Source: an uncultured Spirochaetota bacterium
GTDB taxonomy: Bacteria; Spirochaetota; Spirochaetia; SZUA-6; Fen-1364
Direction: 5' to 3'
Length of the DNA stretch: 55,342 bases
Assembly: GCA_963745235.1 (NCBI GenBank)
Contig: CAVUXE010000069.1
Location: 1-55,342, forward strand
Positions 6,253 to 29,345 of the stretch are shown here, one piece after another. The translations under genes were made by a program, and so were the position numbers. The notes below the pieces were generated by a model, which was not told where the DNA came from, did not search any database, and saw only the letters and a list, made by a program, of their open reading frames with translations. The number at the start of each line of letters is the position of its first letter. Positions within the stretch are counted from its first letter, which is position 1.

Positions 6253-6803
6253 TTTTGCACGCGCCTCCAGACCTTCGATGGTTTCTGGAAGGTTAGCATT
6301 GGAACGGTCGAGGCGCCAATGGCCTTAAGTCGGCGGGGCATCGGCGGAAATAAGCAGGGAGTGTCAAATGACGTTGGCGAAGTCGGACCTGGTGGCGGCG
6401 TTCTCCCGTCAGCAGAAAGGCAATCCCAATGTCCGCCTCGTTGGGTGACGATCCCGAGGCAGCGGGTATACGCCGCTCGGCCGGTGTCCCTGAAGGGCAA
6501 GTGTCAGATCGAGTCTAAGCAATCACACTTAGGGGGATCTCCTCTTACCTGCAGTCGAAGCCCTCTCCTGTGTTGCGGAGCAAAGTGTTTGCTTGCAGTC
6601 ATATTGCGCTACAGTTCCAGTTGAAAGAAGGCGCCACGGCTTATCCCTGGATGTAGTCGCAGGTGGCGGGCAGTACGAAAGCCGCAAGCAAGGGACGCGC
6701 TCGGCCGCAACCGGCCGGCGGACCGCTCAGCACGCCGCCGCCCGGACCGCTCCCGGTCTCCCGAGCGAGACAGAGGTGGCACCTTCGTCCGGTCCCCCCA
6801 ATC

Positions 6804-7571
6804 CTACTCTCCGGCGAGCTTCCCTGCCGACTCCGGGTCCAGGTACATCGTGGCGTTCTCCTTTTCCTTCAGGATCGAGGCCGGAAGATCCGGAGAAACG
6901 GAGGCATGCATCAGGCGCGCAACGATCGCCGCTTTGATGGCGTAGGGGACCACCACGAGGATCACTGATGCCGCCATCAGGGTGGGCATGGTGATCGTGA
7001 ATCCGGAATCGGGGATGGCGCTGAGCGCTTTGAAGTTGGGGTCCTGCTCGAGCTGCCGCTTGCTCTCATCGACAACCTTGACGAACCTCACCCTCTGCGG
7101 GTCGTGGAAGTTGGTGTGCCCAGGTTCGTTCAAGGCGATGTGACCCGAGATGCCGATGCCGAGACAGGAGATGTGCGGCGGGCGGGCGGCGATGAGCGCC
7201 TCGTAGCGCAGCCGCTCGGCCTCGATGTCCTTGGCGGCGTAGTCGATCACGTTGACGCTTTTCGGAGAGACGTGCTCGTACAGGTCTCGGGTGGGCTGGG
7301 CGCTCACCGTGTTCTCCGCGTGCATGCCCGGCGCGTAGAACTCGTCCACGGAAAACGCGTTGATCCGGCTCCAGTCGATGTCAGCGCGGGCGCGCAGCGA
7401 GCGGTGAAACACCGACTGCGACTCCGCGCCGGAGAACACGACGTTGATTTCCGGGTTCGACCGCAGCAGCGCGGCCGCACCCGCGGCAAAGTCCGTAGCG
7501 GCTTTCTCCGCCATCTGGGACGTCGAGTCAGCGGCAAGGACCTTCATCCTGCCGCAGGCGAACTCCCTCAT
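6804..7571 (-). CDS. Glucosamine-6-phosphate deaminase-like protein (NagB/6PGL fold)
   Basis: IDWSRINAFSVDEF, LGIGISGHIALNEPG, PASILK and YLDPESA motifs. The phosphate loop (SGAESQ) differs from canonical NagB. Confidence 0.85.
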   Translation of the reverse strand: MREFACGRMKVLAADSTSQMAEKAATDFAAGAAALLRSNPEINVVFSGAESQSVFHRSLRARADIDWSRINAFSVDEFYAPGMHAENTVSAQPTRDLYEHVSPKSVNVIDYAAKDIEAERLRYEALIAARPPHISCLGIGISGHIALNEPGHTNFHDPQRVRFVKVVDESKRQLEQDPNFKALSAIPDSGFTITMPTLMAASVILVVVPYAIKAAIVARLMHASVSPDLPASILKEKENATMYLDPESAGKLAGE

Positions 7572-7590
7572 GCTTGTCCTCCATCACGTC

Positions 7591-8859
7591 TCACGCCGGA
7601 CCACCAAGCTCCACGCGGGGTTGTGGAGCGTAGTAGATCCGGGCGGGGGCACCGTCGTGCAGGATGGAGAGCCGGGCAGCCTCCACGACGAGCTCATTGG
7701 TCCAACTGTTCGACGGGGTGGCCAGGAGGCCCCTCTCGTCTGCCTGGCGCGCCCGGCTGCGCCGTGCCTCCAGCGCCAGTTCCGACGGCAGGCCGTCGGC
7801 CTCTCGTTCCATGTCCACGATGGTGTGTACAATGGAAGCAATAGAGTCGTACCCGTAGCCGACGGGCCGGTCCCCCTGCCCTTCCCAAGGCACGAGGCGG
7901 AAGAAATCCGGGCTGACATAGTTGAACGCCGACCCTCCGGGGCCGATGCCGTCCAGGTAGGCGTAGCTGACGCCGCGGTTGTGGTCGTCATGCCGGATCA
8001 TGCCGGAGCGACCCTCGCCCTCGCAGAACAAGATGAGCCCCTGGTCGTTGCTGCCCGCAGCCTGGTCCGGGTAGCCTAACCCGTTGGAGACCGCGAGGAG
8101 CGCGCCGTTTTCCCACCGGACCGTCCCCAGCGACCAGAGGAAACCCTCTTTCCCATTGGGGAAACGCCGGGCCACGCCCTGGAGACGGACCTCCGTCGGG
8201 CGGAGGCCCGTGATGAAGGACACCAGGTCCACGTAGTGGCAGCCGATGTACGTGAAGGGATCCGACTGGTCGCAGGTGAACCAGTTCTGGAAGTTGGACT
8301 GGCGATAGTACCAGGGCTCGATCAACTTGGCTTCCCCAAACACGAACTCGCCGAACTGGCCGCGCCGGTAGGCCGAGCGGGCAACCAGGGAACGACGGTC
8401 GAACCGCTTGTGATACTCCACTCCCACGAACAGCCCGCGCTCCCTGGCGGCCTTCTCTATCTCCATGGCCTGGGAGACCTTCAGCACCAGCGGCTTCACG
8501 CACAGCACGTGCTGGTTGGACTCGAGCGCCGCCATGACCACCTCGTAGTGGAGTTGGTCTGGCACCGCCACCACGACGAGCTGGTGCGGCGGAAGGCGCG
8601 AGATGACCTGGCGGTACAGGTTGGGATCTGCACGGTCTTCCGGCTGGTCCAGCGGCGGGCTGGGAACGAAGGACTGGCCGGGGAAGCTGCGCGAGATGTC
8701 GGGGTTGGACGCCAGGACCGATAGGGGGCGCGAGCTGAGCGCGGAAATCGTGATGTCGGAGATCACGCCCGTCCGCTGGAGGTGGTAGAGGCTCGGCAGG
8801 ATCAGGTCGGCGGTGATCATCCCGCCCCCCACGATCACGGTCTTCAATGCGTTGGCCAT
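7591..8859 (-). CDS. Gfo/Idh/MocA family oxidoreductase
   Basis: IVGGGMI Rossmann motif, VAVPDQLH, HVLCVKPL, YHKRFD and GCHYVD. Confidence 0.9.
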   Translation of the reverse strand: MANALKTVIVGGGMITADLILPSLYHLQRTGVISDITISALSSRPLSVLASNPDISRSFPGQSFVPSPPLDQPEDRADPNLYRQVISRLPPHQLVVVAVPDQLHYEVVMAALESNQHVLCVKPLVLKVSQAMEIEKAARERGLFVGVEYHKRFDRRSLVARSAYRRGQFGEFVFGEAKLIEPWYYRQSNFQNWFTCDQSDPFTYIGCHYVDLVSFITGLRPTEVRLQGVARRFPNGKEGFLWSLGTVRWENGALLAVSNGLGYPDQAAGSNDQGLILFCEGEGRSGMIRHDDHNRGVSYAYLDGIGPGGSAFNYVSPDFFRLVPWEGQGDRPVGYGYDSIASIVHTIVDMEREADGLPSELALEARRSRARQADERGLLATPSNSWTNELVVEAARLSILHDGAPARIYYAPQPRVELGGPA

Positions 8860-8880
8860 CTCCGTCCTCCAGGGGTCGAT

Positions 8881-10275
8881 CTATCGGAAGGTGTCATCCA
8901 TCGCCTCGGCGAGCGCGTTGAGCCCGTCCTCCAGCGCGTCCCGCGGGATGTCCAGCGACGGCGCGATCTTGATGCACTCACCTGCCACCCCCACCGGGGC
9001 GAACATGAGCAGCCCCTTCTGGAAGCAGTGGAGGTTGACGGCCAGCGCCGCCTCGGGGTCGGGTGTCCGGGTTCCCTCCTTCACGATCTGGATGCCGGCC
9101 ACGAGGCCCTTGCTATGCACGCATCCGGCCCGGCCCGGGTGGCGCTTCTGGATATTCAGGAGCCCTTCCCGAAGAACCGGGTCCAGCGCGCGGGCGTTGT
9201 CCAGGAAGCCGCCCTTTTTCAGCGCGTGGATGTTCGCCACCGCGCTGGCAACCGGCAGCGGGGAGCCGGAGTGGGTGGATGTCATGGAGCCGGGCGGGTA
9301 CAGCTCCATGACGTCCGGGCGGCCGATGACCGCGGACAGCGGGAGGGAGCCGGATATCCCCTTGCCGCACGCCACCAGGTCGGGAACGATCCCGTAGTTC
9401 TCGAACGCAAACCACGTCCCGGTCCGGCCGAAGCCGGCCTGGACCTCGTCCATGATCAGGAGCACATCGTGGTCCCGGCACCACTTCTCCAGTGCCCTGG
9501 CGTACTCCACGGGCATGAAGTCGGGCCCCACGCCCTGGAAGGTCTCCGTCAGGACGGCGCAGATCTCGTCCGGCGCGGCGCCCTGCCGGGCAAGGCTTTC
9601 CAGGAAGAGCTCGAAGCGCACGTCCAGGTTCTTGTACCCGTCCGGGAAGGGAACCTGGATGAAGTCCGGATGTGAGCCGCCCAGCCACTTCTTCTGTCCC
9701 TGCATTCCGCCGGCAAGCTGTGATCCCATGGTGCGGCCGTGGAACGCGTTCTGAAACGACACGACTTTCCGCCGAGCGGGCCCGTGTCGCTCCAGGCCGT
9801 AGGTGCGGGCGAGCTTGATGGTGTTCTCCACGGCCTCCGAGCCGGTGGACAGGAGGAACACCTTGCCGTCCGGAATGGGGCAGATGCCGGCCAGGAGCTC
9901 CGCCAGCTCCGCGCGGCTCTCATGGGCAAACACGTAGGCGCTGAGCAGCGGCAGGTCCAGCATGCGGCGCAGCGCCGCGACAACGGTGGGATTGGCGTTG
10001 CCAGCGTTGGAGATGAGCACGCCGCTGGACCAGTCCAGCCACTTGTTCCCCCAGCGGTCGTACACACAGATGCCCTGGGCGTGGTCCACGACCACTGGCG
10101 GCTGGCCCTGCATGGACGAGGGCTCAAAGCGCTCGAGCTTCTCGAAAATCGGGATGGACTCGGGTACAGGCAGGGACGTGGCGATCCGGCGGTACGGGGT
10201 CTCCACCGGCGGAACGGCAACAGGGACCAGGGAATACTTTCTCTTGTGCATGGACTGCTCTCTCATGGATGTCAT
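8881..10275 (-). CDS. Class III PLP-dependent aminotransferase
   Basis: STGSEAVE, AFHGRT and DEVQAGFGRTG...PDLVACGKG (PLP lysine). Start is the ATGA overlap at 10275 or the ATG at 10251; the longer track ORF extends into mttB. Confidence 0.92.
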   Translation of the reverse strand: MTSMREQSMHKRKYSLVPVAVPPVETPYRRIATSLPVPESIPIFEKLERFEPSSMQGQPPVVVDHAQGICVYDRWGNKWLDWSSGVLISNAGNANPTVVAALRRMLDLPLLSAYVFAHESRAELAELLAGICPIPDGKVFLLSTGSEAVENTIKLARTYGLERHGPARRKVVSFQNAFHGRTMGSQLAGGMQGQKKWLGGSHPDFIQVPFPDGYKNLDVRFELFLESLARQGAAPDEICAVLTETFQGVGPDFMPVEYARALEKWCRDHDVLLIMDEVQAGFGRTGTWFAFENYGIVPDLVACGKGISGSLPLSAVIGRPDVMELYPPGSMTSTHSGSPLPVASAVANIHALKKGGFLDNARALDPVLREGLLNIQKRHPGRAGCVHSKGLVAGIQIVKEGTRTPDPEAALAVNLHCFQKGLLMFAPVGVAGECIKIAPSLDIPRDALEDGLNALAEAMDDTFR

Positions 10276-11744
10276 GCCGGCAGGTGGGCCGCCGCGTGAG
10301 CCACCACGCGGTCGATCTCTTTCATGGTTGCCGAGTCCACCACCGGCTCGGGTTTCTCTTCCCACAGCGAGCGCGCAAGCTCCCTCGCGCGCTCCTCCAT
10401 GCCCTTCGTGCTGGCGCCGTGGGCGGCGTCCCACTTCACCGTCTCGAAGAGGTTGGAGAAAAACAGCTCGTCTCGGAAATGGTCCACGGTGTGCTGCTCC
10501 CCCAGGAAGTTGCCTCCGATGCCGACCTTCTCTATGGTGTCCAGCGCCAGCGTATCGTCGTTGACCTCGATAGGCTTGAGGATCCTCCTCATGCCGCGAA
10601 AGATCTCGTTGTCGATGACGAGCTGCTGCGGAGAAAAAGTTACCGCATTCTCCAGGTGTCCGACCACCCCGATCCCGACCGCCCCCGCGAGAACGGGAAA
10701 CACGGTGCTCATGGTCTTGTCGATGCCGGCCTGGACGTTGACGAAGCAGCTGTCGGTCTTGGCCCCGTGCACGCCGCTGGGGCACCCGTAGTATTCCGAG
10801 ATCATCTGCACCCGGGCTACCAGCAGCGGCATGCGGTCCGCGCTTGCGTAGCGGAACAGGCCGCTCGCCATGTCGCAGTACGAGGGAATGATGTCCACGC
10901 CGACAACCGCGTTCTCATCGATGGCGTAGGCCAGCACGAGCCCGCCGAGGGTTTCCGCCACGCCCACCACGAGGGTGCCTGCGGCCGTGGCGGGCGCGGT
11001 GGCACCGCCGTTGGGCATGGTGTCCAGCGTCTGGGGGAGTCCCCGCTCTATGTACTCCACGAAAATGTCCGCCATGTTGGAATCGAGGCAGAGAGGGGAC
11101 TTTGCTTCCGAGTAGCCCACCAGGATCGGTTCCCTCTTGAGCGCTTCCAGGCCGCCCTTGACGATGGAACCGATCTCGATGAGGTAAGGGACGTCCTCCG
11201 GCCGGAAGGTTTCCACCCCGCCGAACTTCGTCGTGTACTTGGCCAGCTCGGCCGCCATGCGGACCGGGCGCAACCGGAAAGGGACCTCCTGGTCGGACAC
11301 GGGGAGGCCGGTGTAGTCGATGTCGGTGAGCCGGTTCACCAGGTGGATGGACCGGTGCACGTCGTCCATGGTGGCCGGCCGCCGGCGCCCCTGGAAATCC
11401 CATATGTAGACGCAGAAGCCCCCGGCGCTGGTGGTGAAGTCCGGGTGAATGCGGTGCGGCTCCTTGCGGAACCGGATGTGCGCGTAGCGCACCGACATCC
11501 GCGCGGGAAGGCGGTCCGGGTTGTCGTAGGCCCGGCGCATCCGGTCCACGGCGTCCTGGACGATGCGCTTCGGGAACTTCACTACGCAGGACTGCTCGTC
11601 CACGGAGCAGCCGGCCTTGCGCAGATACGCCAGGGCCCGGGTGCTCTCGAAGCGCATGCCCACACGCTCCAGGACGTGCAGCGCGCCCTCGTGGATCCGC
11701 TCCATTTCCGCCATGGACAGCACACGAATCGGTTCCAAGAACAT
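10272..11744 (-). CDS. Trimethylamine methyltransferase (MttB) superfamily protein, non-pyrrolysine
   Basis: IHEGALHVLERVGMRF, GATAPATAAGTLV, QAGIDKT, FSPQQLVIDNEI, TLALDTIEKVGIGGNFL and QHT motifs; no in-frame UAG. Confidence 0.92.
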   Translation of the reverse strand: MFLEPIRVLSMAEMERIHEGALHVLERVGMRFESTRALAYLRKAGCSVDEQSCVVKFPKRIVQDAVDRMRRAYDNPDRLPARMSVRYAHIRFRKEPHRIHPDFTTSAGGFCVYIWDFQGRRRPATMDDVHRSIHLVNRLTDIDYTGLPVSDQEVPFRLRPVRMAAELAKYTTKFGGVETFRPEDVPYLIEIGSIVKGGLEALKREPILVGYSEAKSPLCLDSNMADIFVEYIERGLPQTLDTMPNGGATAPATAAGTLVVGVAETLGGLVLAYAIDENAVVGVDIIPSYCDMASGLFRYASADRMPLLVARVQMISEYYGCPSGVHGAKTDSCFVNVQAGIDKTMSTVFPVLAGAVGIGVVGHLENAVTFSPQQLVIDNEIFRGMRRILKPIEVNDDTLALDTIEKVGIGGNFLGEQHTVDHFRDELFFSNLFETVKWDAAHGASTKGMEERARELARSLWEEKPEPVVDSATMKEIDRVVAHAAAHLPA

Positions 11745-11768
11745 CGACTTCCTCCCGTTGTGCGCGCT

Positions 11769-13022
11769 CTATCGAAGCCGGCGGAGAACCTCGCTCGCGG
11801 TGAGGAGGTTCTTTCCGGAGTGGAACTCCGGGTCCTGGAACTTGCAGGCCGGAACGATGTCCACCGGCGCGCCAGTCCGACCATCGATGTTCTGGAACGG
11901 TCCCCAGTCGGTGCGGGGATTCATATAGGTGCTAAAGTACGTGTCATGAGCCTGGCGGTAGACGTCCAGGAACCGGGAATCCCCGGTCCCTTCGTACGCC
12001 AGGAGCACCGCGAGGATGGTCTCCGGCAGGATCCACCAGGGCATGGTCTCGTTGATCGGCTTCGTGGACTTCGCGTCGATGGTCTTGTAGATGCCGGGGT
12101 GCGCCCGGTTCCAGCCGTGATCGAGGTTCCACCGGATCACCCGGGGAGCTATCTCGTTGACCCGCTGGCGGAGGGCCTCATGCCGTCCCTCCTTCTCCGA
12201 CAGCCGCGAGAACTCCAGCGCGAAGCTGCAGAACTCTATGGCGTGGCCGGGGTCCGCGGTCTCCATCCCGTGCTCGTCGACGAACGGCTCGCCGGCGGGC
12301 GTGACGTACTCCACGAAGGCGCCCCGGTCCGCGCGGTAGTAGCGGTCCAGCAGGTGCGCAGTGAGCTCCGCGCCCACGTCCAGGTAGGCGGCGTCGTGAA
12401 GCTGCTTGGCAAACTCATTGGCGAGGTCCAGGGCCACGGAGAACGGGTTCTCCAGGACCCGGTCCGAGGGCGTCAGGTCCGGTTCCGTGACAAAACGGTT
12501 CTCCCTCAGCGCCTGGACGGTCTCCTGGAATATCTCCCGGGCGGTCTGGATTCTCTTGCGGTCCCCGAACGTGGCGCCGAACTCCAGGAATCCCATCCCG
12601 ACGTAGAGGTCGCTGTAGCTCTTATGTCCCTTGGGCTTGGGCTGGCCCACCACCTTTTCCTTGCCGTCGAGATCCACGAGGAAAGGAAACGAATCGCCGT
12701 TGGACCGGTAGTGTTGCTCCAGCGTCTCGATCACCGCGGCGGCATAGGCATGCAGTTCCCTGGCGAGGTTCGGGAAAAACCGTGAGAACCTTGCGAACAC
12801 GCAGGCGCCCCTGCCGTTGATCCAGGAATAGGAAAGCAGGTCGCTGGCGGCGAACTCCGCGCCCGTGATGGAGTTGTAGCCGGTCTGCACGCCGGGGAAG
12901 TCGGCGAACGTCTGTTTCCTCTGCAGGAAGAACCTGATACGCGCTTCGCAATAGTCCAAGTACTGGCTGCTTGTGGACTCGAGTTTCTTCGGGTCTGCTG
13001 GCGAGACGCTTGGCGGCATCAT
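11769..13022 (-). CDS. AGE family epimerase (N-acylglucosamine 2-epimerase-like)
   Basis: WINGR, PGHAIE, WWILPE and EFH motifs, so both catalytic His positions are present. Start moved to 13022 because the ATG at 13046 overlaps the -10 box and an AAGGA RBS precedes 13022. Confidence 0.87.
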   Translation of the reverse strand: MMPPSVSPADPKKLESTSSQYLDYCEARIRFFLQRKQTFADFPGVQTGYNSITGAEFAASDLLSYSWINGRGACVFARFSRFFPNLARELHAYAAAVIETLEQHYRSNGDSFPFLVDLDGKEKVVGQPKPKGHKSYSDLYVGMGFLEFGATFGDRKRIQTAREIFQETVQALRENRFVTEPDLTPSDRVLENPFSVALDLANEFAKQLHDAAYLDVGAELTAHLLDRYYRADRGAFVEYVTPAGEPFVDEHGMETADPGHAIEFCSFALEFSRLSEKEGRHEALRQRVNEIAPRVIRWNLDHGWNRAHPGIYKTIDAKSTKPINETMPWWILPETILAVLLAYEGTGDSRFLDVYRQAHDTYFSTYMNPRTDWGPFQNIDGRTGAPVDIVPACKFQDPEFHSGKNLLTASEVLRRLR

Positions 13023-13044
13023 GGTTTTGTCCTTTCGTGCGAGC

Positions 13045-13073
13045 ATCGTACCATATGGCTGTTAGTTTGTCAA
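13045..13073 (-). promoter_or_regulatory. Sigma70-type promoter for the catabolic operon
   Basis: TTGACA-N17-TACGAT on the minus strand, with an extended TGn. Confidence 0.75.
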
Positions 13074-13182
13074 ATTATTGGATAATTAAGTCTCATATGT
13101 ACCAATTAAATGTGTCAAAAATCGCTAAAACAGGCATTTTGAGGCTCCATAGTAATGGTTAAAGAAAATATTTCAAAAAAAC

Positions 13183-13221
13183 TTGACGAATACGGACTTT
13201 CATTTATACTGGGCTAAGTCC
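13183..13221 (+). promoter_or_regulatory. Sigma70-type promoter for the transport operon with overlapping inverted repeat
   Basis: TTGACG-N16-TATACT; GGACTT-N16-AAGTCC (13194-13221) brackets the -10. Confidence 0.65.
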
Positions 13222-13281
13222 AAATGGTCACCTGTCTCCCCGTCGGGGAGGGCGTGAGCAAGCGACATTAGGAGGCATCGC

Positions 13282-14538
13282 ATGAGAAACAAGTTCCTTC
13301 TCGTGGCGATCGGTTTTCTGCTGGCTGCCGGCGTGGCATTCGCCGGTGGAGCGGGAGAATCGAAAGCCACCGCTGGCACCACCATCAAGTACATGGCGGT
13401 AGCCGAGCCGATTTCCGATTTCATCCGAACGGAAATCATTCCCGGCTTTACGAAGGAAACCGGCATCAACGTGCAGATCGACACGACGGACTATGTCAAG
13501 CTGCACGACAAGGAGGTGCTCGAGCTCCTGGCAGGCAACTATGATGTCTACCAGATCGACCAGATCTGGGTGAAGAACTACATCAAGAACAAGTGGGTGG
13601 AGCCCCTGGATCCCCTCATCAAATCCGCCAACATCAACGTGGCGGCCTACTATGCCTCCCTGATGTCGATCTGCCAGGACGGGGGCACGACCTACGCGCT
13701 GCCCCTCTCGGCCATCCCCGTCGACTACTACTACAACAAGGATATGCTCGCGGCGGCCGGAGTGCAGCCGCCGGATACGTGGCAGGACGTGCTGGACATC
13801 GCCAAGAAGCTCAACAATCCTCCCGGCCAGTGGGGCGTGGCCATCCGCGGAGAGCGGGGAAACCCGATCACCTGGACGTTCCTCCCCATCTTCTGGTCCT
13901 ACGGCGCCAAGATCTTCGACGCCAACATGAAACCGGTGTACAACAGCCCCGAGGGCGTGGCGGCCCTCACGTTCTTCAAGGAGCTGTACCAGTACTCCTC
14001 CCCGGGCTGGCACAGCGCCCAGGAAATCGCCACCATGATGCAGCAGGGCCAGACGGCGCAGATGACGCTCATGTCCGTGTACAACGCCGCCATGGATGAC
14101 CCGTCCCAGTCCAAGGTGGTGGGCAAGGTGATGTTCAAGGACATGCCCAAGGGCCCGACCGGAAACCGCGCCTCCATCCTGGGGATGTGGACCATCGGCA
14201 TCGGATCCAAGTCCACCAAGAAACCCGCTGCCGCGGCGTTCCTCGCCTACATCTCGCGGCCCGAGATTGCCAAGAAGCTCGCCTTCAGCGGCACCGTGGG
14301 CGCGACCATGCCGGCCACGTACAAGGATCCGCAGGCGCCCCGGTTCTACCCGGTGCTGGGCAGCGTGCTGAACTACGTGCAGGCGCCGCCGCTCATTCCC
14401 GAGGCCGAGCAGTGGTTCCTCAGCTTCGGAACCGCGCTCCAGGACGCGCTGTCGGGAGCCAAGACCCCGCAGCAGGCCATGGATGACTCGGTGGCGGAGA
14501 TCACAAAGGTCATGACGGACGCCGGCTACTACAAGTAG
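13282..14538 (+). CDS. Sugar ABC transporter substrate-binding protein (CUT1)
   Basis: AGGAGG RBS, signal peptide ...AFAGGAGES, YALP...YYNKDML...PPDTW motif. Confidence 0.93.
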   Translation: MRNKFLLVAIGFLLAAGVAFAGGAGESKATAGTTIKYMAVAEPISDFIRTEIIPGFTKETGINVQIDTTDYVKLHDKEVLELLAGNYDVYQIDQIWVKNYIKNKWVEPLDPLIKSANINVAAYYASLMSICQDGGTTYALPLSAIPVDYYYNKDMLAAAGVQPPDTWQDVLDIAKKLNNPPGQWGVAIRGERGNPITWTFLPIFWSYGAKIFDANMKPVYNSPEGVAALTFFKELYQYSSPGWHSAQEIATMMQQGQTAQMTLMSVYNAAMDDPSQSKVVGKVMFKDMPKGPTGNRASILGMWTIGIGSKSTKKPAAAAFLAYISRPEIAKKLAFSGTVGATMPATYKDPQAPRFYPVLGSVLNYVQAPPLIPEAEQWFLSFGTALQDALSGAKTPQQAMDDSVAEITKVMTDAGYYK

Positions 14539-14577
14539 TCGAGCGGTACCGCCTACAGACAGTCGACAGTTGCCTTT

Positions 14578-14618
14578 GAAGAGCCCCGGCCCGGCCGGGG
14601 CTCTTCGCGGACTTTTTT
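14578..14618 (+). terminator. Intergenic stem-loop after the SBP gene (partial terminator or mRNA stabiliser)
   Basis: GAAGAGCCCCGGC-CCG-GCCGGGGCTCTTC perfect 13-bp stem, with a T6 run 6 nt downstream. Confidence 0.7.
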
Positions 14619-14633
14619 CGGAGGTACAAGGAG

Positions 14634-15380
14634 ATGACGCACAAGGTGTGGGATGTCTGCGCCCAGATGGGGACGGGGGACAGGAAAGGTGACGTGCTGG
14701 AATCGGCAATCACCGCGGAGCGCATCCTGGAGAACATGGACGCGGGCGGCGTGCAGCGTTCCGTGATCTATCCCGTCACGTGGAATCACTACGTGGAGAA
14801 ATCCAACCGGGAGATCGCGGATGCCGCGGCGAAGCACCCCGGGCGGTTCATCGGCCTTGCGCGCGTGAACCCCGTCAGCACGGGCGGCATCGCCCTGCTG
14901 GAAAAGGCGCTCAGCCTGAAGGGAATGGCCGGCATCCGGCTGCGCCCGTTCAATGACAAGTTCTCTCTTTCCGACCCCTCGGTGGAGAGGGTCTTCTCCC
15001 TGGCGGAAGAACGGAAAATCCCGATCGCCGTGGACGGGGAGAAGGACAAGGAGGCGTTCGTCTCCCTGCTGAAGAAGCACACGAAGGTGCCGGTGATCCT
15101 GATGCACCTGGGAGATTTCGGGAACTGGGTCTGGCAGAACGGGAAAGCCTACATGGAGCTGCTGGAGCAGGTTCCTCACTTCTACATGGCCACCTGCTTC
15201 GAGATCATCCACTTCTTCCTGGAGGAGGCCATCCGGCGCGCGCCGCGCAAGGTGGTGTTTGGCAGCGACTCCCCGAGCCTTCCTCCTTCCATGGAGCTGA
15301 AGAAGATCGAGGTGATGAAGCTCCCCGACGAGGACCTGGCGCGCGTGGTGGGGGGCAATCTGTCCGGCATTTTCGGTTGA
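14634..15380 (+). CDS. Amidohydrolase family protein (Amidohydro_2-like) with degenerate metal site
   Basis: HPGRFIGLARVNP, LMHLG and FGSDSP motifs; the N-terminal HxH is replaced by C-A-Q. Confidence 0.85.
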   Translation: MTHKVWDVCAQMGTGDRKGDVLESAITAERILENMDAGGVQRSVIYPVTWNHYVEKSNREIADAAAKHPGRFIGLARVNPVSTGGIALLEKALSLKGMAGIRLRPFNDKFSLSDPSVERVFSLAEERKIPIAVDGEKDKEAFVSLLKKHTKVPVILMHLGDFGNWVWQNGKAYMELLEQVPHFYMATCFEIIHFFLEEAIRRAPRKVVFGSDSPSLPPSMELKKIEVMKLPDEDLARVVGGNLSGIFG

Positions 15381-15405
15381 TGCGGCAAGGAAGGAGAGAA
15401 CGCGC

Positions 15406-16137
15406 ATGATCATTGATTCACACGCCCACATGGGCAAGGGCTTCTACATGAATGATCCCATCCAGTCCAACATCCCGCCGGAGAGGGTGCTGAAGATGTC
15501 CCGGGAGGCGGGCGTGGACAAGACCATCATCTTCCCCGTGAACTACCCCGAGTACTCCGGCGCCATGAAGGAGATCTTCGAGGCGGTCCAGAAGTATCCC
15601 AACGAGCTGATCGGCTACGCGCGCGTCAACCCGGAGAACGACAACGCGCTGGACGTGCTCACCAACGCTATCGAGAACTACCACTTCAAGGGTCTAAAGC
15701 TGCACCCTGGCAACGACAAGTGGAAGGTCAACAGCCCGCATACCCGCAAGTGCCTGGACCGGGCCCGGGACTACAAGATCCCCGCGCTGTTCGATCCGGT
15801 GGTCCAGCTGGACGACATCTTCGCCCTCACGCGTGAGTACCCCACGCTGAACTTCATCATCGCGCACATGGGCGGATTCTACGACTGGCAGACGCAGACC
15901 CGCTGCATCGCGCTGGCGGAGGAGCTGCCGAACGTCTACCTGGATACGCCGTTCGCCTTCGTGCACGCCATGCTCAAGGAAGGCGGGAAGCGTATTCCGC
16001 GCAAGATCCTGTTCGGTACCGACGCGCCGGCAATCCACGCCTCGGTGGAGATGGAGAAGATCCGGTCTCTGAAGCTCGGCAAGGCGGTCGAGGAGGACAT
16101 CCTCGGGGGAAACGTCGCGCGCCTGCTGCGGCTATAG
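15406..16137 (+). CDS. Amidohydrolase family protein (Amidohydro_2-like)
   Basis: IIDSHAH, GLKLHP, IAHMGG, PNVYLD and FGTDAP motifs. Confidence 0.9.
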   Translation: MIIDSHAHMGKGFYMNDPIQSNIPPERVLKMSREAGVDKTIIFPVNYPEYSGAMKEIFEAVQKYPNELIGYARVNPENDNALDVLTNAIENYHFKGLKLHPGNDKWKVNSPHTRKCLDRARDYKIPALFDPVVQLDDIFALTREYPTLNFIIAHMGGFYDWQTQTRCIALAEELPNVYLDTPFAFVHAMLKEGGKRIPRKILFGTDAPAIHASVEMEKIRSLKLGKAVEEDILGGNVARLLRL

Positions 16138-16235
16138 GAGAGAGTCTTGAGCGCATGGGGGAATTGTGAGACCCTCAATCCGCCGCCGTCGCCCGGGCCG
16201 GCTCCGAACGGGACAGCGGCGGGGGGGAGTCAGGC

Positions 16236-17144
16236 GTGAGCGCGCGCACCGCATCCAAGGCGGGTTCCGACGGGTGGTTCATCACTGCACTTCTCGCTCC
16301 CGCGGCCATCACCATCTTCCTGGTGGTCCTGGTCCCGCTCGGCTACGCGCTGCGGGACAGCCTCTACCGCATCAACATCTCGATGCTGTACCAGGGGGAG
16401 AAATTCCTCGGCCTCGGCAACTACGTCCAGGCGCTGAAGGACCCTGATTTCTACAACTCCCTGGTGGTGACCACCGTGATCACGGTGCTCGGGGTGGCGG
16501 TGGAGCTTGTCCTGGGCCTGATGTTGGCCCTTCTGCTCAACCGCCCGCTGGAAAGCGTGCACTTCCGCGGCAAGCGCGTGTTCCGCACCCTCGTGATCCT
16601 CCCCGTGATCCTGCCGCCGGTGGTCGTGGGCCTGATGTGGCGGTTCATTTTCCAGTACTCCGGCGTCATCAACTTTCTCCTGATATCCATGGGCCTCCAT
16701 TCAGTGGACTGGACGACTCAGTACACCGGCGTGATCACCATCATCACCACGGTGGTATGGCAGAACGTGCCGTTCTCGTTCCTGCTCATCCTGGCGGGAC
16801 TGCAGTCGGTGCCGCCAGACCTCATAGAGAGCTCCATGGTGGACGGGGCGTCAGGCCGGCAGCGGCTTTTCCACATCTACCTGCCGCTGATCAAGCCCAT
16901 CATCTTCCTCATCCTGACCATCCGGACCATGGACGCCTTCCGGACGTTCGACGAGGCGTTCATCCTCACTGGCGGCGGACCGGGCCGATCCACGGAGACT
17001 GTGAGCCTCTTCATTTACCGCAACTCGTTCTCCTTCTTCGACGTCGGCTACGGGAGCGCCCTCTCCATCCTGCTTTTGCTGCTGCTCATGGTCATTACAG
17101 TGTTCTACATGCGGCTGATCTACGCCGGGCGGGGGGCAAAATGA
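16236..17144 (+). CDS. Sugar ABC transporter permease (MalF-type)
   Basis: FLGLGNY, LAGLQSVP...ESSMVDGAS (EAA loop), LTGGGPG. Confidence 0.93.
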   Translation: MSARTASKAGSDGWFITALLAPAAITIFLVVLVPLGYALRDSLYRINISMLYQGEKFLGLGNYVQALKDPDFYNSLVVTTVITVLGVAVELVLGLMLALLLNRPLESVHFRGKRVFRTLVILPVILPPVVVGLMWRFIFQYSGVINFLLISMGLHSVDWTTQYTGVITIITTVVWQNVPFSFLLILAGLQSVPPDLIESSMVDGASGRQRLFHIYLPLIKPIIFLILTIRTMDAFRTFDEAFILTGGGPGRSTETVSLFIYRNSFSFFDVGYGSALSILLLLLLMVITVFYMRLIYAGRGAK

Positions 17145-17989
17145 CAATCCGACCCGCAATTACCCTCCGACAGGGCGGCCGCCTGCTCGTGCTCTACATC
17201 GGGCTGATTCTGCTCGTCCTGATCATCCTGGGACCGATCCTGTGGCTGCTCATCAACTCGTTCAAGACGAACGTGGATGCTCTTTCCGTCCCGCCCAAGC
17301 TGATCTTCAAGCCGTTGTTCAGCAACTACCCGAAGGTCATCATCCGAAACCCCGACTTCCTGAAGGACTTGATGAACAGCATTGTCACCATGGTCCTCAG
17401 CACGGGCGTCGTGCTGGTGCTGGGCATGCCGGCGGCGTACGTGCTGGCGAGGTTCCGTTTCGTCGGCAGCGTCATCCTGTCTTTCGTCATCCTGGCCACC
17501 CGCATGGTGCCGCGCGTGGCCATCGGCATCCCCACGTACCTGATCATGATGAGGATCGGCGTGCTGGACACGTACTTCGCCGTCATCGTCAGCTTTGTCG
17601 CGTACAACCTTCCCTTCGGCATCTGGCTGCTCATGGGGTTCGTACAGATGATCCCGCGGGAGCTTGAAGAGGCGGCCATCATAGACGGCGCCAGCAAGAT
17701 ACAGGCCTTCCTCCGCATGATCGTCCCCCTGGTCCTGCCGGGGCTTGTGGCCGTGGGCATCCTCGTGATGATCGTCTGCTGGCGGGAGTTCTTCCTTCCG
17801 CTCATCCTCACGTCCCACAACGCCAAGACGATCTCCGTGCTTGCCGGCACGTTCATGACAGAGTACGGCATCGACTGGGGACAGCTGAGCGCGTTCTCCA
17901 TCATCACTTTCCTGCCCGTGATCGCCATCGCTGTGTACGCACAGAAGTACCTGATCAGCGGGCTCACGATGGGTGCGGTCAAGGAATGA
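17141..17989 (+). CDS. Sugar ABC transporter permease (MalG-type)
   Basis: ATGA overlap at 17141; NSFKT, IPRELEEAAIIDGAS and GLTMGAVK motifs. Confidence 0.93.
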   Translation: MTIRPAITLRQGGRLLVLYIGLILLVLIILGPILWLLINSFKTNVDALSVPPKLIFKPLFSNYPKVIIRNPDFLKDLMNSIVTMVLSTGVVLVLGMPAAYVLARFRFVGSVILSFVILATRMVPRVAIGIPTYLIMMRIGVLDTYFAVIVSFVAYNLPFGIWLLMGFVQMIPRELEEAAIIDGASKIQAFLRMIVPLVLPGLVAVGILVMIVCWREFFLPLILTSHNAKTISVLAGTFMTEYGIDWGQLSAFSIITFLPVIAIAVYAQKYLISGLTMGAVKE

Positions 17990-19272
17990 CGGAACGCGGC
18001 GCCGGAGACGGACCGGACACGGCCATGCCGGGACCGGAGGAAAACGGCGGCCGCCGCCCGGTGGACATCACCCAGTACTTCCGGAAGGACAACAAGGAAC
18101 GCTACGCGTCCATCAAGGACATCAACTACGTCAAGATCATGGACCTCATCCACTCCGTGCGTTCCATCTCCCGAAGTGATATCGCCTTCCGCCTGAACCT
18201 CAGCAAAACCACCGTCACCTCCGTGGTCAACCGGCTCATGAGCGACAACGTCGTCCACGAGGTGGGCAAAGGAGACGCGGTCAAGGGGCGCAAGCCCCGC
18301 ATGCTGGAGTTCAACAAGGAGATCAAGGTTTCCGTCGGCGTGGAGATCGGGGACACGGAGTGCATCGGCATCTTGACGGACATGTACGCGCACCCCATCG
18401 ACGACCCCGTCATCACGCCCATCAGCCGCGAGGCCTCCCGTGACGGGTGGAAGGGCCGCACCGCAGTGCTTGAAACCATCCGGCGGCTGACCGAGAACGC
18501 CCAGCACGACACCGTGCTGGGCGTGGGGATCGGCATCCCGGGGATCTACGACGTGCGCCACCACTCCATCCGCATCGCGGAGAGCCTCGGCCTGGAGAAC
18601 TTCTCCACGCGGAAGCTGGAGGAATCCCTGGGCTTCCCGGTGAAAGTCGTCAACCGCGCCAACGCCGCGGCGCTTGGGGAAAAGTGGTACCGCGCGGACC
18701 CCAAGTGCCAGAACCTGCTCTACGTCTCCATCGGGGACGGCGTGGGCGCGGGCATCATCCAGAACGGCCAGCTTCTCATAGGCGCCACCGGAAGCGCCGG
18801 CGAGATCGGGCACATGAACGTCATGCCTTATGGCCCCCTGTGCCGCTGCGGCAGCAGCGGGTGCCTGGAGAGCCTGGTGTCCCGCAACATCATCATCGCG
18901 CGCGCCAAGGACCTCATCCTGAAAAACCGCCACAGCATCCTCCGGAGGGTGGTGGGGGAGCAGGTGGACTCGATCGACCTCGAGGCCATTCTCCGGGCTG
19001 CGCAGGAGGGGGACGAGGACATCATCAAGCTTCTCCAGCAGCAGGCCGAGTACGTGGGGCTCGCCCTGGCCAATGCCATCAGCATGGTGGACCCGCAGGT
19101 GGTGATCATCGGAGGGGAGACCGGCATGCTGTTCGGCGAAATGCTCCTCCCGACGATCACGCGCGTGGTCGCGGAGCGCGCGCGCTACTTCCGGGAGGTT
19201 GAGGTGATCATTTCTCCGCTTGGCCGGCTGGCATCCTGCGTCGGCGCCTCAGCCTACGTCCTTTCCACCTGA
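17986..19272 (+). CDS. ROK family transcriptional regulator
   Basis: N-terminal HTH (ISRSDIA...LSKTTVT, GRKP); GSAGEIGH...CRCGSSGCLE ROK signature. Confidence 0.93.
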   Translation: MTERGAGDGPDTAMPGPEENGGRRPVDITQYFRKDNKERYASIKDINYVKIMDLIHSVRSISRSDIAFRLNLSKTTVTSVVNRLMSDNVVHEVGKGDAVKGRKPRMLEFNKEIKVSVGVEIGDTECIGILTDMYAHPIDDPVITPISREASRDGWKGRTAVLETIRRLTENAQHDTVLGVGIGIPGIYDVRHHSIRIAESLGLENFSTRKLEESLGFPVKVVNRANAAALGEKWYRADPKCQNLLYVSIGDGVGAGIIQNGQLLIGATGSAGEIGHMNVMPYGPLCRCGSSGCLESLVSRNIIIARAKDLILKNRHSILRRVVGEQVDSIDLEAILRAAQEGDEDIIKLLQQQAEYVGLALANAISMVDPQVVIIGGETGMLFGEMLLPTITRVVAERARYFREVEVIISPLGRLASCVGASAYVLST

Positions 19273-19701
19273 AGTGATCCATGCGCCACCTTGTCATCCC
19301 CCCTGACGGGGACTGCCGGTTCGACTTCCTCTTTCTCGGGACCGTCGTGCAGCCTCTGGATCCGGGGCTCGCGCCGCTGGAAGAAGCCTCTCGGTTCGTC
19401 TGCTTCGCACCTTGAGTTGTTGAATCTTGTGCCGTCAAAGACTGCGAGAAAGGAATGAGATTGTTGAAGGCTATTCCTGAAGTGCGCGTTGCTGTAGAAC
19501 GCAAGGAAGTCACAGACAGGCGAAGAATGGGAGAAAGAAACGGGAGCTCGCATTTGTATCTCGCCATCTTCAGGGTCGACGGGGCGACATTTCAATCCGG
19601 TCGCCGCCGCGGCGGCCCGCGCCGCAGGTCTTGTCACGGGCGTTCCCGTCGACCGCGGGTTCCTGGTGGACAATATCTGAGAGAGGGAATGGTGGTAGAG
19701 T

Positions 19702-20976
19702 TCAGCCGCTGAAGCGTTTCCGGGAGGACCATAGACCGACGGCGGGATTGGACACGTAGTAGATCCGTTCACCTTCGCCCAATGTATTCCATCCGTCCAC
19801 GAGCTTCTGCGGGTTGTAGCGTTGCGTCATCTCCGCCAGGACGCCGTAATGAAAGCCTGCCTTCTCCACCTCGGCGCGCAAAAGACCTCCCGGGCAGTAC
19901 GTCACGTCGAAGCGGCCCTCCGTGGAGCCGTGGATCAGGTGAGCCGCGACGCTAAGGTTTTCCCGCAGATCCTCGTTCTCCTCCACGAGCTGGAGGACGC
20001 GCGGTGTGCCGAAGTAGCCGTACTTCCTGATCAGCGCGTCGATGACCGGATCCTCCCCGAACTGCCGCACACCGGGCGCGAGGATGATGAGCTCCCCCCT
20101 GTCCGCGAGCGCCATGCGCGTGCGGTAGATCGCCTTGTTGCCCAGCCACGTGCTCTTGAACTCGTCGGGCTGCAGGTACACCACCACGCGGGGGAAGGGC
20201 TCGTCGACCATCGTGAAGTTCACTTTCAGGGAGAGCTCCGCGGCTTTGAGGAATGTCTCGATGTCGTCGCCCACGAAAAGGCCTTTCAGGGCGAGACTGC
20301 CGTCGTCCTGCCTGCCGACAACGGTGTGGATGTAGACGATGGGCAGGTGCCGCGCAAAGTGGTCGGCGGCGTAGTTGAGAACGGCCCGTACCGGCGTGTC
20401 GGCGCGTCCCATCATGCGCTCCATCCCGTAGACGGCGCCCAGGTAGTGGCTCTTGTTGATGGCCTCCCGGCCGCCGGCGCCTATGAGGAGATTCTTCGTG
20501 TAGCCGGCCATGCCGATAACCTCGTGCGGCACGACTTGGCCGATGGAGAGGATCAGGTCATGCCCGCCCGTAACGATGAGCGAGTCGACCTGGGCCGGCC
20601 AGTCGAAGCAGAGCTTTCCTTCCGAGACGTCCTGAATAAACCCCACGGGCACCCGGCCGAGTGTCTCGAGGTTCTCCTTCCAGCGATGCACCCGGAAAAG
20701 CGAGGCCGGCACCTTTCCGAACATCGTGAGCTTTTCCTGGTCGGACACGGGAAAGTGCGTCCCCGTTGCAGGCAGTACGTCGGAGAGCGCCGCCCCGTAG
20801 TAGTCCCAGACCATCTCGGTGATGCGTCCCGCCCGGGAGTGGAACCGGGTGAAGTCGGGCGGCACGGCAAGGACCTTCCCCCGCTTTCCTATCTTGCCGA
20901 GGGCGTCGGCGAGGGCGGAGCGCAGCTCCCCATCGGAAATCACCTCTCGCTCAGAGCCCCGTGCGTAATACGTCAT
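19702..20976 (-). CDS. LarA (lactate racemase, DUF2088) superfamily protein, probable sugar-acid 2-epimerase
   Basis: PPDFTR, ATGTH and VVPHEVIGMAGYTKN, which keeps the His/Lys spacing of the LarA EPHFFAGFSGGRK motif. Confidence 0.82.
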   Translation of the reverse strand: MTYYARGSEREVISDGELRSALADALGKIGKRGKVLAVPPDFTRFHSRAGRITEMVWDYYGAALSDVLPATGTHFPVSDQEKLTMFGKVPASLFRVHRWKENLETLGRVPVGFIQDVSEGKLCFDWPAQVDSLIVTGGHDLILSIGQVVPHEVIGMAGYTKNLLIGAGGREAINKSHYLGAVYGMERMMGRADTPVRAVLNYAADHFARHLPIVYIHTVVGRQDDGSLALKGLFVGDDIETFLKAAELSLKVNFTMVDEPFPRVVVYLQPDEFKSTWLGNKAIYRTRMALADRGELIILAPGVRQFGEDPVIDALIRKYGYFGTPRVLQLVEENEDLRENLSVAAHLIHGSTEGRFDVTYCPGGLLRAEVEKAGFHYGVLAEMTQRYNPQKLVDGWNTLGEGERIYYVSNPAVGLWSSRKRFSG

Positions 20977-25419: not shown

Positions 25420-26556
25420 ATGAGCATTTCTGTGCGAAGAGGCGTGCTGCTAGTGGCGACGGCGGTGTTGCTTTTCGCCCTTGCCCTGCCAGTGTTTGCC
25501 GGAGGGCAGAAGGAAGGAGGAGCGGCGCAGGGAGCTACTGCAGCTGGGGGGAAAATTTACATCCCCATTATTTGCAAGGGCTTCCAGCACCAGTTCTGGC
25601 AGACGGTGAAGAAGGGTGCGGAAGCTGCTGCGGCGCAGTTGGGCGTGCAGATGACCTTTGAAGGGCCTCCGTCGGAAGCAGATATCCAGCCCCAGGTGCA
25701 GATGCTGACCAACGACATGGCGAAGAACCCCGCGGCGATCTGCCTGGCGGCGCTGGACACCAACTCGGTCATGGACCAGCTCAACCAGGCCATCAAAAGG
25801 AAGATCCCGATCATCGGGTTCGACTCTGGGGTGCCCAACGCGCCCAAGGGGGCCATTTACGCGACGGCGGCTACCAACAGCTACGCAGCCGCCGGACTGG
25901 CCGCCGACAAGATGTTCGCGGCCCTCAAGGACAAGATCGTGGCGGCCAGTGACTCAGGCCCAGTGACGATTGTGGAGTGCCAGCAAGACGTTACAAGCCA
26001 GTCGATAACTGACCGGGGGAAGGGATTCCGCGACGAGATGATAAAGTTGATCACGACGCAGACCAACCACACGAAGGCAGACATTCGGGTGCAAGGCAAC
26101 CCTGCGTACATCGCACCGGATAGCCCGACGAGCGGGAAGGCCATCATCATCAGCGTGGTGGTCCCTGCTACAGCGAAAGATCCTGACGTTGCGGCTGCAG
26201 TCCATGCGATGCTGAACCGGGTGAAGTCCGAGAACATCATCGGGGTATTCTGCTCCAATGAAGGCACTGTGAAGGGGATGATTACATCGACCAATGACGG
26301 TAGCGCCCTGCCGACTGAGTACCCCGGCTTGATCGTGATAGGCTTCGATGCCGGCAAGCTGCAGAAGCAGGCGGTGCGTAGCAAGTACTTCCTGGGGTCT
26401 ATCACGCAGGACCCGTACAACATCGGTTTTCAGGCTGTGACTTTGGCGTACAAGGCTGTCAAGGGCGAGCCGGTTGCGGACGTGGACACGGGCGCCAAGT
26501 TCTACGACTCGACCAACATGGACGAGGCTGATATCGCTCAGCTGCTTTACGATTGA
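25420..26556 (+). CDS. Monosaccharide ABC substrate-binding protein (RbsB-like)
   Basis: GGAGGT RBS, ...VFAGGQKE signal, KGFQHQFWQ, IGFDSG and ITQDPYNIG motifs. Confidence 0.93.
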   Translation: MSISVRRGVLLVATAVLLFALALPVFAGGQKEGGAAQGATAAGGKIYIPIICKGFQHQFWQTVKKGAEAAAAQLGVQMTFEGPPSEADIQPQVQMLTNDMAKNPAAICLAALDTNSVMDQLNQAIKRKIPIIGFDSGVPNAPKGAIYATAATNSYAAAGLAADKMFAALKDKIVAASDSGPVTIVECQQDVTSQSITDRGKGFRDEMIKLITTQTNHTKADIRVQGNPAYIAPDSPTSGKAIIISVVVPATAKDPDVAAAVHAMLNRVKSENIIGVFCSNEGTVKGMITSTNDGSALPTEYPGLIVIGFDAGKLQKQAVRSKYFLGSITQDPYNIGFQAVTLAYKAVKGEPVADVDTGAKFYDSTNMDEADIAQLLYD

Positions 26557-26578
26557 AAGGGGAACGCCCCTGAGAGAA

Positions 26579-26609
26579 GCAGAGGCCCACCTGAACGGCG
26601 GGCCTCTGC
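26579..26609 (+). terminator. Stem-loop after the SBP gene (no U-tract)
   Basis: GCAGAGGCCC-N11-GGGCCTCTGC, a 10-bp stem. Confidence 0.45.
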
Positions 26610-29333: not shown

Positions 29334-29345
29334 TTAAGGTACAGT

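Follow-up and report, generated by a model that had tools for sequence, protein, structure and literature searches.

A sugar-associated clade of MttB-family proteins in an uncultured Spirochaetota bacterium and its possible role in B12-dependent demethylation of carbohydrates

We analyzed a 55,342-nucleotide (nt) stretch of DNA from an uncultured Spirochaetota bacterium (GenBank assembly GCA_963745235.1, contig CAVUXE010000069.1, positions 1 to 55,342 of the forward strand; this whole stretch is called the window below), in which a five-gene minus-strand operon at 6804-13046 faces a plus-strand operon at 13282-19272. Our subject is the MttB-superfamily gene of the minus-strand operon. Its product and its close relatives form a clade of their own, tied to sugar genes across phyla, and we propose tentatively that this clade removes methyl groups from carbohydrate-type compounds.

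Two facing operons with sugar-type genes

The genes that a preliminary description of this DNA had named were all recovered in their places from the open reading frame (ORF) list and from Pfam and NCBIfam, as were the two operons. Their features are given below (aa, amino acids; PLP, pyridoxal phosphate; GABA, gamma-aminobutyrate).

6804-7571 (-): NagB/6-phosphogluconolactonase-like protein, 255 aa, last gene of its operon; PF01182, 69.7 bits
7591-8859 (-): Gfo/Idh/MocA NAD(P) oxidoreductase, 422 aa; PF01408 and PF22725
8881-10275 (-): class-III (GABA-aminotransferase-like) PLP enzyme; PF00202, 279 bits
10272-11744 (-): MttB-superfamily protein, 490 aa, no in-frame stop, Lys329 at the pyrrolysine position; PF06253, 227.7 bits
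11769-13046 (-): AGE-superfamily (alpha/alpha)6-barrel isomerase/epimerase, 425 aa, first gene of its operon; PF07221, 63.2 bits
13047-13281: divergent promoter region between the operons, 235 nt, holding three sigma-70-like sites
13073-13045 (-), 13176-13149 (-) and 13183-13210 (+): the sigma-70-like sites
13282-14538 (+): CUT1-type solute-binding protein, 418 aa, lipoprotein-like N-terminus; PF01547, 136.6 bits
14577-14607 (+): strong hairpin of 14 pairs after the binding-protein gene, a terminator-like site
14634-15380 (+): first Amidohydro_2 protein, 248 aa; PF04909, 72.5 bits; no NCBIfam match
15406-16137 (+): second Amidohydro_2 protein, 243 aa; PF04909, 74.3 bits
16236-17144 (+): first CUT1 ABC permease, UgpA-/GlcT-like; PF00528
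17141-17989 (+): second CUT1 ABC permease, GlcU-/MalG-like; PF00528; its ATG at 17141 overlaps the stop of the first
17986-19272 (+): ROK-family regulator with an N-terminal winged helix-turn-helix; PF00480, 177.8 bits; MarR/HTH_24 at residues 50-95

The start codon of the aminotransferase gene (ATG at 10275) and the stop codon of the MttB gene overlap in the sequence ATGA, with 10266 and 10251 as alternative ATG starts, and the remaining gaps between minus-strand genes are 24, 21 and 19 nt; these genes therefore form one operon. Third-position G+C is 0.85-0.90 in the true genes, which sets them apart from many antisense ORFs. The plus-strand operon runs from the binding protein through the two amidohydrolases and the two permeases to the ROK gene. 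It had been described beforehand as carrying a CUT1 importer, two amidohydrolases and a ROK regulator: all of these are present, but the importer is represented by its binding protein and permeases only, with no ABC ATPase gene in the operon, and the amidohydrolases sit between them. An ATPase shared in trans is usual for CUT1 systems.

All three promoter-like sites detected in the stretch 6100-19800 fall inside the spacer between the operons, while 1.9 +/- 1.6 would be expected over that whole stretch. No inverted repeat of at least 10 nt was found in the spacer (13047-13281), so no operator for the ROK protein can be named. The hairpin at 14577-14607 is weakened as a terminator by the overall count of terminator-like sites, which shows no excess (7 found, 8.3 expected from shuffles).

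The catalytic genes of both operons have family matches at the superfamily level only, none at an equivalog cut-off, and their solved relatives are remote. The AGE-fold protein is not AGE proper (NF052547, 76.3 bits against a cut-off of 600; AGE structures in the PDB align at E 1e-11), and the Gfo protein has weak NCBIfam matches to IolG, levoglucosan dehydrogenase and others, with a best PDB match at E 1e-11. Among solved structures the aminotransferase comes closest to a broad-specificity amino-acid racemase and to GABA transaminases (E 8e-62 to 1e-54). The NagB-like protein scores 74.8 bits with TIGR00502, below the cut-off of 236.9, and is also matched by the 6-phosphogluconolactonase model; its closest solved relative is the B. 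subtilis-type glucosamine-6-phosphate deaminase 2bkv (E 9e-18). The binding protein is closest to a trehalose/maltose-binding protein (6e-33) and then to sugar, sorbitol and sulfoquinovosyl-glycerol binders. The ROK regulator resembles NagC and Mlc, with scores below their cut-offs.

A deacylation step had been assigned to the amidohydrolases, and this assignment is not supported: neither is of the NagA deacetylase type (Amidohydro_1, PF01979), both match PF04909 only, and neither has an NCBIfam model. The sole solved relative of the second is 3cjp, a predicted amidohydrolase (E 1e-21). That protein alone has a metal-binding-type N-terminal motif (DSHAH); no HxH is present at the N-terminus of the first. 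The ROK gene is followed directly by a LarA-like gene (19702-20976, minus strand) that matches NF052594, "nickel-dependent putative hexonate epimerase", at 623 bits against a cut-off of 500. The characterized PF04909 members known to us are decarboxylases, lactonases and hydratases. From this general knowledge of the family, the PF04909 pair and the neighboring LarA-like gene suggest reactions on lactones or sugar acids, not deacetylation.

The MttB homologue and its relatives

The match of the MttB homologue to PF06253 is nearly full-length (profile positions 30-497 of 500; 227.7 bits against a gathering score of 25). It is not a trimethylamine methyltransferase of the pyrrolysine type: TIGR02369 gives 301.6 bits against a cut-off of 525, and the gene has no internal stop. 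The protein aligns to the solved MttB of Methanosarcina barkeri (7xcl/7xcm) at E 5e-45 and to MtgB (9yce/2qne) at E 1e-40. More than 120 database clusters lie at 56-98% identity to it, under automatically assigned source names that read "trimethylamine-corrinoid protein Co-methyltransferase".

Residues were mapped through HMMER alignments to the solved MttB and MtgB. In M. barkeri MttB, the cis-peptide N-H of Gly110 bonds the corrin, and Met249 shifts away to admit substrate (PMC9842639). Both are kept in the window protein, as G109 and M243, and both are invariant in a 20-sequence alignment (A1) and in the clade signature. Pyl334 of MttB, which forms the substrate adduct, aligns with K329, a lysine in 80 of 81 orthologues (80 loci from other genomes, described below, plus the window), and MttB Glu370 aligns with E365. 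The position that is Tyr364 in MttB (pyrrolysine activation) and His348 in MtgB (carboxylate binding) is G359.

The substrate side of the barrel is different. Glycine betaine is bound in MtgB by Arg312 and His348, which hold the carboxylate, and by Phe356 and Tyr97 through cation-pi contacts with the amine; Arg312 is described as common to every superfamily member of known function (PMC13080624). In the window protein Arg312, His348 and Phe356 align with G324, G359 and A367, and the Tyr97 position stays aromatic (F110). Across the 81 orthologues G324, H326 and G359 are fixed, position 367 is mostly Ala, and at position 363 62 proteins have His, 18 have Gln and one has Lys; the residues specific to the clade are D241, H326, H/Q363 and N366. 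The expectation that this enzyme is not of the betaine type was thus borne out. At the signature sites the two MttB paralogues in this genome differ from the clade, and they adjoin Opp-type peptide/betaine-style ABC transporters. As judged from these alignments, the window protein belongs to a distinct clade, in which the corrinoid-facing side of the barrel is retained and the substrate side appears to be rebuilt as a polar pocket without a carboxylate clamp. A Cys-based zinc site as in MtaB was considered and dropped, as C321 (C/V) and C333 (C/R) are not invariant.

Comparison with characterized systems places these features in context. Like MtgB of Desulfitobacterium hafniense, the window protein is a non-pyrrolysine superfamily member of TIM-barrel length with an aromatic at the Y97 position; unlike MtgB, it has Gly, Gly and Ala for R312, H348 and F356, no adjacent corrinoid protein or second methyltransferase (MT2), and a setting of sugar genes instead of betaine genes. 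The MttB/MttC/MtbA system of M. barkeri (7xcl-7xcn) includes the best solved relative, with equivalents of Gly110, Met249 and Glu370 kept; the window protein differs in being bacterial and sugar-linked, in having Lys for pyrrolysine and Gly for Tyr364, in scoring below the TIGR02369 cut-off and in having no mttC neighbor. Eubacterium limosum MthB (which acts on phosphocholine), MtpB, MtcB and MtyB, compared here by description, are likewise non-pyrrolysine members, and their substrates as reported are all acidic quaternary amines, in contrast to what is proposed below. They share corrinoid proteins and the activase RamQ, which are encoded apart from some of the genes for the substrate-demethylating enzymes (MT1; PMC12155760). 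The list of known substrates in the preliminary description left out the phosphocholine of MthB (PMC12155760).

To place the clade in other genomes, we scanned one genome per species for its pattern, which gave 113 confirmed relatives, and took the best 80 (48-73% identity) with flanks of up to 10 kb. These loci come from about ten phyla and include Spirochaetales, Pirellulales and other Planctomycetota, Kiritimatiellae/Verrucomicrobiota, Acidobacteriota/Terriglobia, Chloroflexota, Armatimonadota and others. The clade itself is rare: the closest match in 200 other genomes of the window's phylum is at just 33% identity, and that in 120 other genomes of the phylum of another genome, G003, at just 30%.

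Neighbors were surveyed by unbiased clustering of ORFs within 8 kb, with Pfam run on cluster representatives and on the 132 nearest unclustered ORFs. The census returned 30 URO-D-family genes in 25 loci (within 4 kb in 18 of the 80), GH4 glycosidases in 13 loci, and, recurrently, Gfo oxidoreductases, xylose-isomerase-like barrels, 2-hydroxyacid dehydrogenases, CUT1 transporters, and LacI and GntR regulators; RhaT, sulfatases, a fucosidase, a fucose isomerase and GH141 were also present. A gene from a strict carbohydrate set lay within 4 kb in 47 of the 80 loci, and either a carbohydrate gene or a URO-D gene in 54. As an internal control, the density of recurrent families per 100 kb fell from 29.3 within 1.5 kb of the MttB gene to 10.4 at 1.5-4 kb and 6.8 at 4-8 kb. 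Near neighbors were mostly co-directional with it (URO-D 14/16, GH4 13/13, Gfo 6/7, AGE 4/4). LarA-like genes occur 4-8 kb from the MttB gene in three loci besides the window, and four related loci have a second, divergent MttB-family gene with another pocket signature near the sugar-clade copy (L013:3759-5207, L016:6797-8251, L043:5705-7144 and L087:5177-6949).

The URO-D family includes MtaA/MtbA-like methyltransferases, and MtbA is the protein that serves MttB in M. barkeri. All 14 adjacent URO-D proteins examined match MtaA/CmuA methyltransferase models best (best E 2.6e-48, below the curated cut-offs); HemE matches nine of them, more weakly. They have an LHxCGNT motif in common. For one of the URO-D neighbors (L018:3466-4623) a sequence search of the PDB returned nothing at E <= 0.001. 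By sequence these proteins look like methyltransferases, a pairing that would mirror MttB and MtbA of methanogens.

The proteins of the window recur only in part at the 80 loci (tblastn, E <= 1e-10). AGE orthologues were found in four (50-60% identity), in each case directly after the MttB gene (L013, L015, L016 and L018), Gfo orthologues in three (60-65%; L029, L045 and L048) and aminotransferase orthologues in two (57%; L029 and L048). NagB-like proteins occur in four loci (32-33%), CUT1 permeases in 14 and ROK proteins in six (27-37%); the window's binding protein, amidohydrolases and LarA-like protein were found in none of the 80. The complete gene set is therefore not a conserved unit, and in this respect the conservation that the preliminary description had proposed to look for did not materialize. 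The objection that close homologues might have no conserved association with sugar genes nevertheless falls away, because the clade is linked to such genes across phyla. The window looks like the union of two modules, one of MttB and AGE and one of Gfo, aminotransferase and MttB. The latter trio recurs in L029 and L048, which are verrucomicrobial and acidobacterial (57-65% identity), and a different arrangement, of Gfo, barrel and MttB, recurs in L053, L056 and L070. In a tree of the clade the window clusters with the AGE-linked loci, followed by spirochaete loci that carry URO-D, MttB, 2-hydroxyacid dehydrogenase and CUT1 genes. Most clade loci have no nitrogen-handling enzyme nearby; an N-methyl substrate is therefore not implied for the clade as a whole.

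Corrinoid machinery and the wider genome

As the preliminary description had observed, the window encodes no corrinoid protein, activase or sugar kinase; it has no phosphotransferase system (PTS) gene either. Its prediction that the methyl-transfer machinery would act in trans agrees with a search of the genome, which found a corrinoid protein, a RamA/RACo activase and a methyl-acceptor branch elsewhere. Two stand-alone corrinoid proteins (B12-binding_2 plus B12-binding; 228 and 235 aa) are encoded on contig C35 (C35:96752-97459 and C35:245400-246086, minus strand), in one case within an operon (L012:6542-10387) that also encodes a nitrate-reductase-gamma-like membrane protein, a 4Fe-4S protein, a protein with the C-terminal domain of methylenetetrahydrofolate reductase (MTHFR) and MTHFR itself, an arrangement that recalls the methyl-branch modules of acetogens. 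The activase lies on contig C15 and a pterin-binding (Pterin_bind) protein, in a 282-aa frame, on contig C9; a role of the latter as MT2 is only putative. The activase match (C15:59778-60519) comes in two overlapping pieces in different frames, with open frames of 656 and 157 aa, which suggests a frameshift or an assembly error. MttB-family genes unlinked to the corrinoid protein that they use have been published (PMC12478193, PMC12155760).

RACo was present in 43 of 45 clade-holding genomes (5/5 and 38/40), compared with 18 of 120 other genomes from a single phylum (that of G003) and one of 14 control genomes. Small corrinoid proteins occur in five of five clade-holding genomes and adjoin RACo in three. 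The clade is too rare for a two-by-two test of co-occurrence within a phylum. Many of the RACo/RamA matches in genomes G002, G005 and G206-G245 contain a single in-frame stop (TAG, TGA or TAA), for which gene borders, frameshifts or recoding may be responsible.

The same genome has 27 URO-D-family matches. We surveyed 20 regions around them (L093-L112), putting 114 of 156 called ORFs through Pfam: a URO-D ORF was confirmed in 15, and 11 of these 15 are set among sugar-type genes, namely sugar ABC transporters, LacI/DeoR/GntR regulators, GH127, xylose-isomerase-like barrels, Gfo, FGGY/PfkB kinases or a class-III aminotransferase. This suggests that methyltransferase-like barrels within sugar loci are a general habit of the organism, served by only two corrinoid proteins.

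By Pfam and NCBIfam, the surroundings of the operons in the window are a sugar-use island, which also holds a YesM/YesN-like two-component pair, two CUT2 ABC systems, a DeoR regulator and a xylose-isomerase-like barrel. Positions 26000-36000, which cover the DeoR gene, the barrel and the second CUT2 system, have a G+C of 0.53-0.56 against about 0.62 and may have been acquired separately. Further on, at 47469-54605 (+), lies a full chemotaxis cluster (CheR-TPR, CheW, CHASE3-MCP, CheA-CheW-receiver and CheB). On the other side, 550 nt downstream of the minus-strand operon, a 675-aa ASKHA protein (4225-6252, minus strand) matches Hydantoinase_A and MutL/GlmL-like models in its N-terminal part and lacks a HyuB partner; proteins of the GlmL type are found alongside B12 mutases. 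As a candidate activase this Hydantoinase_A/MutL-like gene was dropped, as it recurs in only one of the 80 loci and 8 kb away. DNA of the operon recurs in soil and peat metagenomes (seven runs from five studies sharing at least half of its words), which fits a role in the turnover of plant or moss polymers.

A possible demethylation route and its alternatives

The reading that we favor, with a probability of roughly 0.45, is that a B12-dependent reaction strips a methyl group from an imported carbohydrate-type substrate that is not acidic, and that this group ends on tetrahydrofolate. The CUT1 transporter would bring in the methylated compound, and the MttB-family enzyme would take off its methyl group and hand it to the Co(I) of a corrinoid protein whose gene lies on another contig of the genome; the candidates are the two on contig C35, one of them in the operon with MTHFR. 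The RamA/RACo-type activase on C15 would hold this protein in its reduced state, and the methyl would pass from it to tetrahydrofolate. The demethylated skeleton would then enter mainstream sugar metabolism through the aminotransferase, the Gfo oxidoreductase, the AGE-fold isomerase/epimerase and the NagB/Pgl-like enzyme, with both operons presumably regulated by the ROK protein.

For this operon an N-methylamino sugar or aminocyclitol is the leading single guess at the substrate, though itself rather unlikely, because the trio of Gfo, aminotransferase and MttB is conserved. The route would run from N-demethylation through transamination to a ketone and then reduction, with AGE-type epimerization afterwards. 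The preliminary description had put forward such a route, which is supported only in part: the trio in L029 and L048 fits demethylation, transamination and reduction. An O-methyl sugar or cyclitol, itself an unlikely choice, is nearly as likely as the N-methyl compound, given that most clade loci have no nitrogen-handling enzyme. The pairs of Gfo and xylose-isomerase-like barrel bring to mind, by analogy, inositol and rhizopine catabolism. In the moc system of Sinorhizobium, rhizopine (3-O-methyl-scyllo-inosamine) is catabolized with a binding protein, a Gfo/Idh/MocA dehydrogenase, a xylose-isomerase-like barrel and a demethylating step on the methylated aminocyclitol, carried out by an oxygen-dependent Rieske system. 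By this likeness, drawn from general descriptions, a B12-type methyltransferase would stand in for the Rieske demethylase. Corrinoid-dependent O-demethylases of acetogens (MtvB/OdmB type) act on aryl methyl ethers, and the P450 6-O-methyl-galactose demethylase of marine bacteria requires oxygen; in both, as proposed here, the methyl group is removed so that the skeleton becomes degradable, although MT1 families and substrates differ.

Several observations weigh against B12-dependent demethylation at this locus. Characterized corrinoid methyltransferase systems often keep the corrinoid protein and the activase adjacent to the MT1 gene; the window has neither, and no corrinoid protein or RACo was found at any of the 80 clade loci (1.2 Mb; tblastn, E <= 1e-3). 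The components in trans sit on other contigs of a metagenome-assembled genome that is 85.7% complete with 5.9% contamination. Co-occurrence with RACo could stem from many other methyltransferase genes, such as those behind the URO-D matches in this genome, and its counts include related, non-independent genomes. Neither a sugar gene nor a URO-D gene lies within 4 kb in 26 of the 80 loci, some of which are on short contigs, with 93 ORFs at 1.4-3 kb outside the scan. The aminotransferase is like GABA transaminases and amino-acid racemases and unlike known sugar aminotransferases, and a sugar kinase is absent, yet NagB enzymes use phosphosugars. Finally, the six superfamily substrates given in PMC12155760 are trimethylamine and acidic quaternary amines; among these there is no sugar, secondary amine or ether.

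Some of these points would be met if the clade had abandoned methyl transfer and been recruited into sugar operons as a cofactor-independent or metal-dependent TIM-barrel enzyme: an isomerase, a lyase, an aldolase-like enzyme with Lys329 as Schiff-base former, or a methanol-eliminating lyase. We regard this as unlikely, if worth serious consideration. It would account for the absence of a corrinoid protein from all 80 loci, for the replacement of three of the four MtgB substrate-binding residues and of MttB Tyr364, and for neighbors that are ordinary sugar enzymes, and the invariant Lys/His/Asp/Glu/Asn set may be of a kind typical of sugar-handling barrels. It leaves unexplained why the Gly that touches the corrin in MttB and the Met that moves there are both invariant, why the commonest co-directional neighbors are MtaA/CmuA-like methyltransferases, and why RACo is so much more frequent in clade-holding genomes than in the background. 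Quite improbable, in our estimate, is a corrinoid-dependent methyltransferase for a methylated amine that is not a sugar and has no carboxylate, with the sugar genes merely co-located or co-regulated; its substrate could be a cationic osmolyte, choline-like or other, or else a methylated omega-amino compound, with the GABA-transaminase-like enzyme acting on the product. Precedent in the family, as reported so far, consists entirely of N-methyl ammonium compounds, an aromatic is kept at the Y97 position (F110), F370 is invariant, and the aminotransferase is GABA-AT-like. Against such an amine, the sole importer in the locus is of the CUT1 sugar/polyol type, with trehalose/maltose, sorbitol and sulfoquinovosyl-glycerol binders as nearest relatives; the sugar-gene neighbors are co-directional and immediately adjacent across many phyla; and the clade was not seen next to a BCCT, OpuA or Opp-type transporter, in contrast to the two paralogues in the window's genome.

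The operon could also be read as biosynthetic, the Gfo protein and the aminotransferase building an amino sugar that the MttB homologue, working in reverse, methylates. Pairs of oxidoreductase and aminotransferase are classic couples of amino-sugar biosynthesis. Against this, the locus lies opposite an ABC importer and its ROK repressor, genes for a glycosyltransferase, a nucleotidyltransferase or an exporter are absent from it, and the neighbors elsewhere are glycoside hydrolases and catabolic regulators; we consider this reading very improbable indeed.

Beyond this operon, B12-dependent demethylation may extend to a so far unrecognized system across phyla, a suggestion that we make with considerable reserve. 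In it, anaerobic or facultative degraders of polysaccharides in peat, soil and sediment would demethylate methylated sugars, amino sugars or cyclitols by means of a sugar-specialized MttB clade with Lys for pyrrolysine, MtaA/CmuA-like partners across sugar loci, and a common RamA-corrinoid module, one to a genome, that would pass the methyl groups of the sugars on to tetrahydrofolate. Polymers of plants, mosses, algae and microbes commonly contain methylated sugars and cyclitols (4-O-methyl-glucuronate, 2-O-methyl-fucose and -xylose, 3-O-methyl-rhamnose, 6-O-methyl-galactose and pinitol are examples), and the methyl group blocks ordinary catabolic routes. The only demethylases for such compounds known to us require oxygen. 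A full-text literature search, which covered neither subscription journals nor supplements, returned no paper joining the MttB family or a corrinoid enzyme with sugars or cyclitols.

The clade is best regarded as an MT1 family with a new pocket in a new genomic setting, and there is a realistic chance that it acts on a new substrate class. If so, the range of the MttB superfamily would extend past trimethylamine and acidic quaternary amines, and carbohydrates would join the substrates of B12-dependent methylotrophy. Surveys that score all non-pyrrolysine mttB genes as quaternary-amine genes, as PMC10805028 does, would need to be read again. The clade would provide an oxygen-free counterpart to the P450 and Rieske sugar demethylases, and it would link polysaccharide breakdown to C1/folate metabolism and to the demand for B12 in soil.

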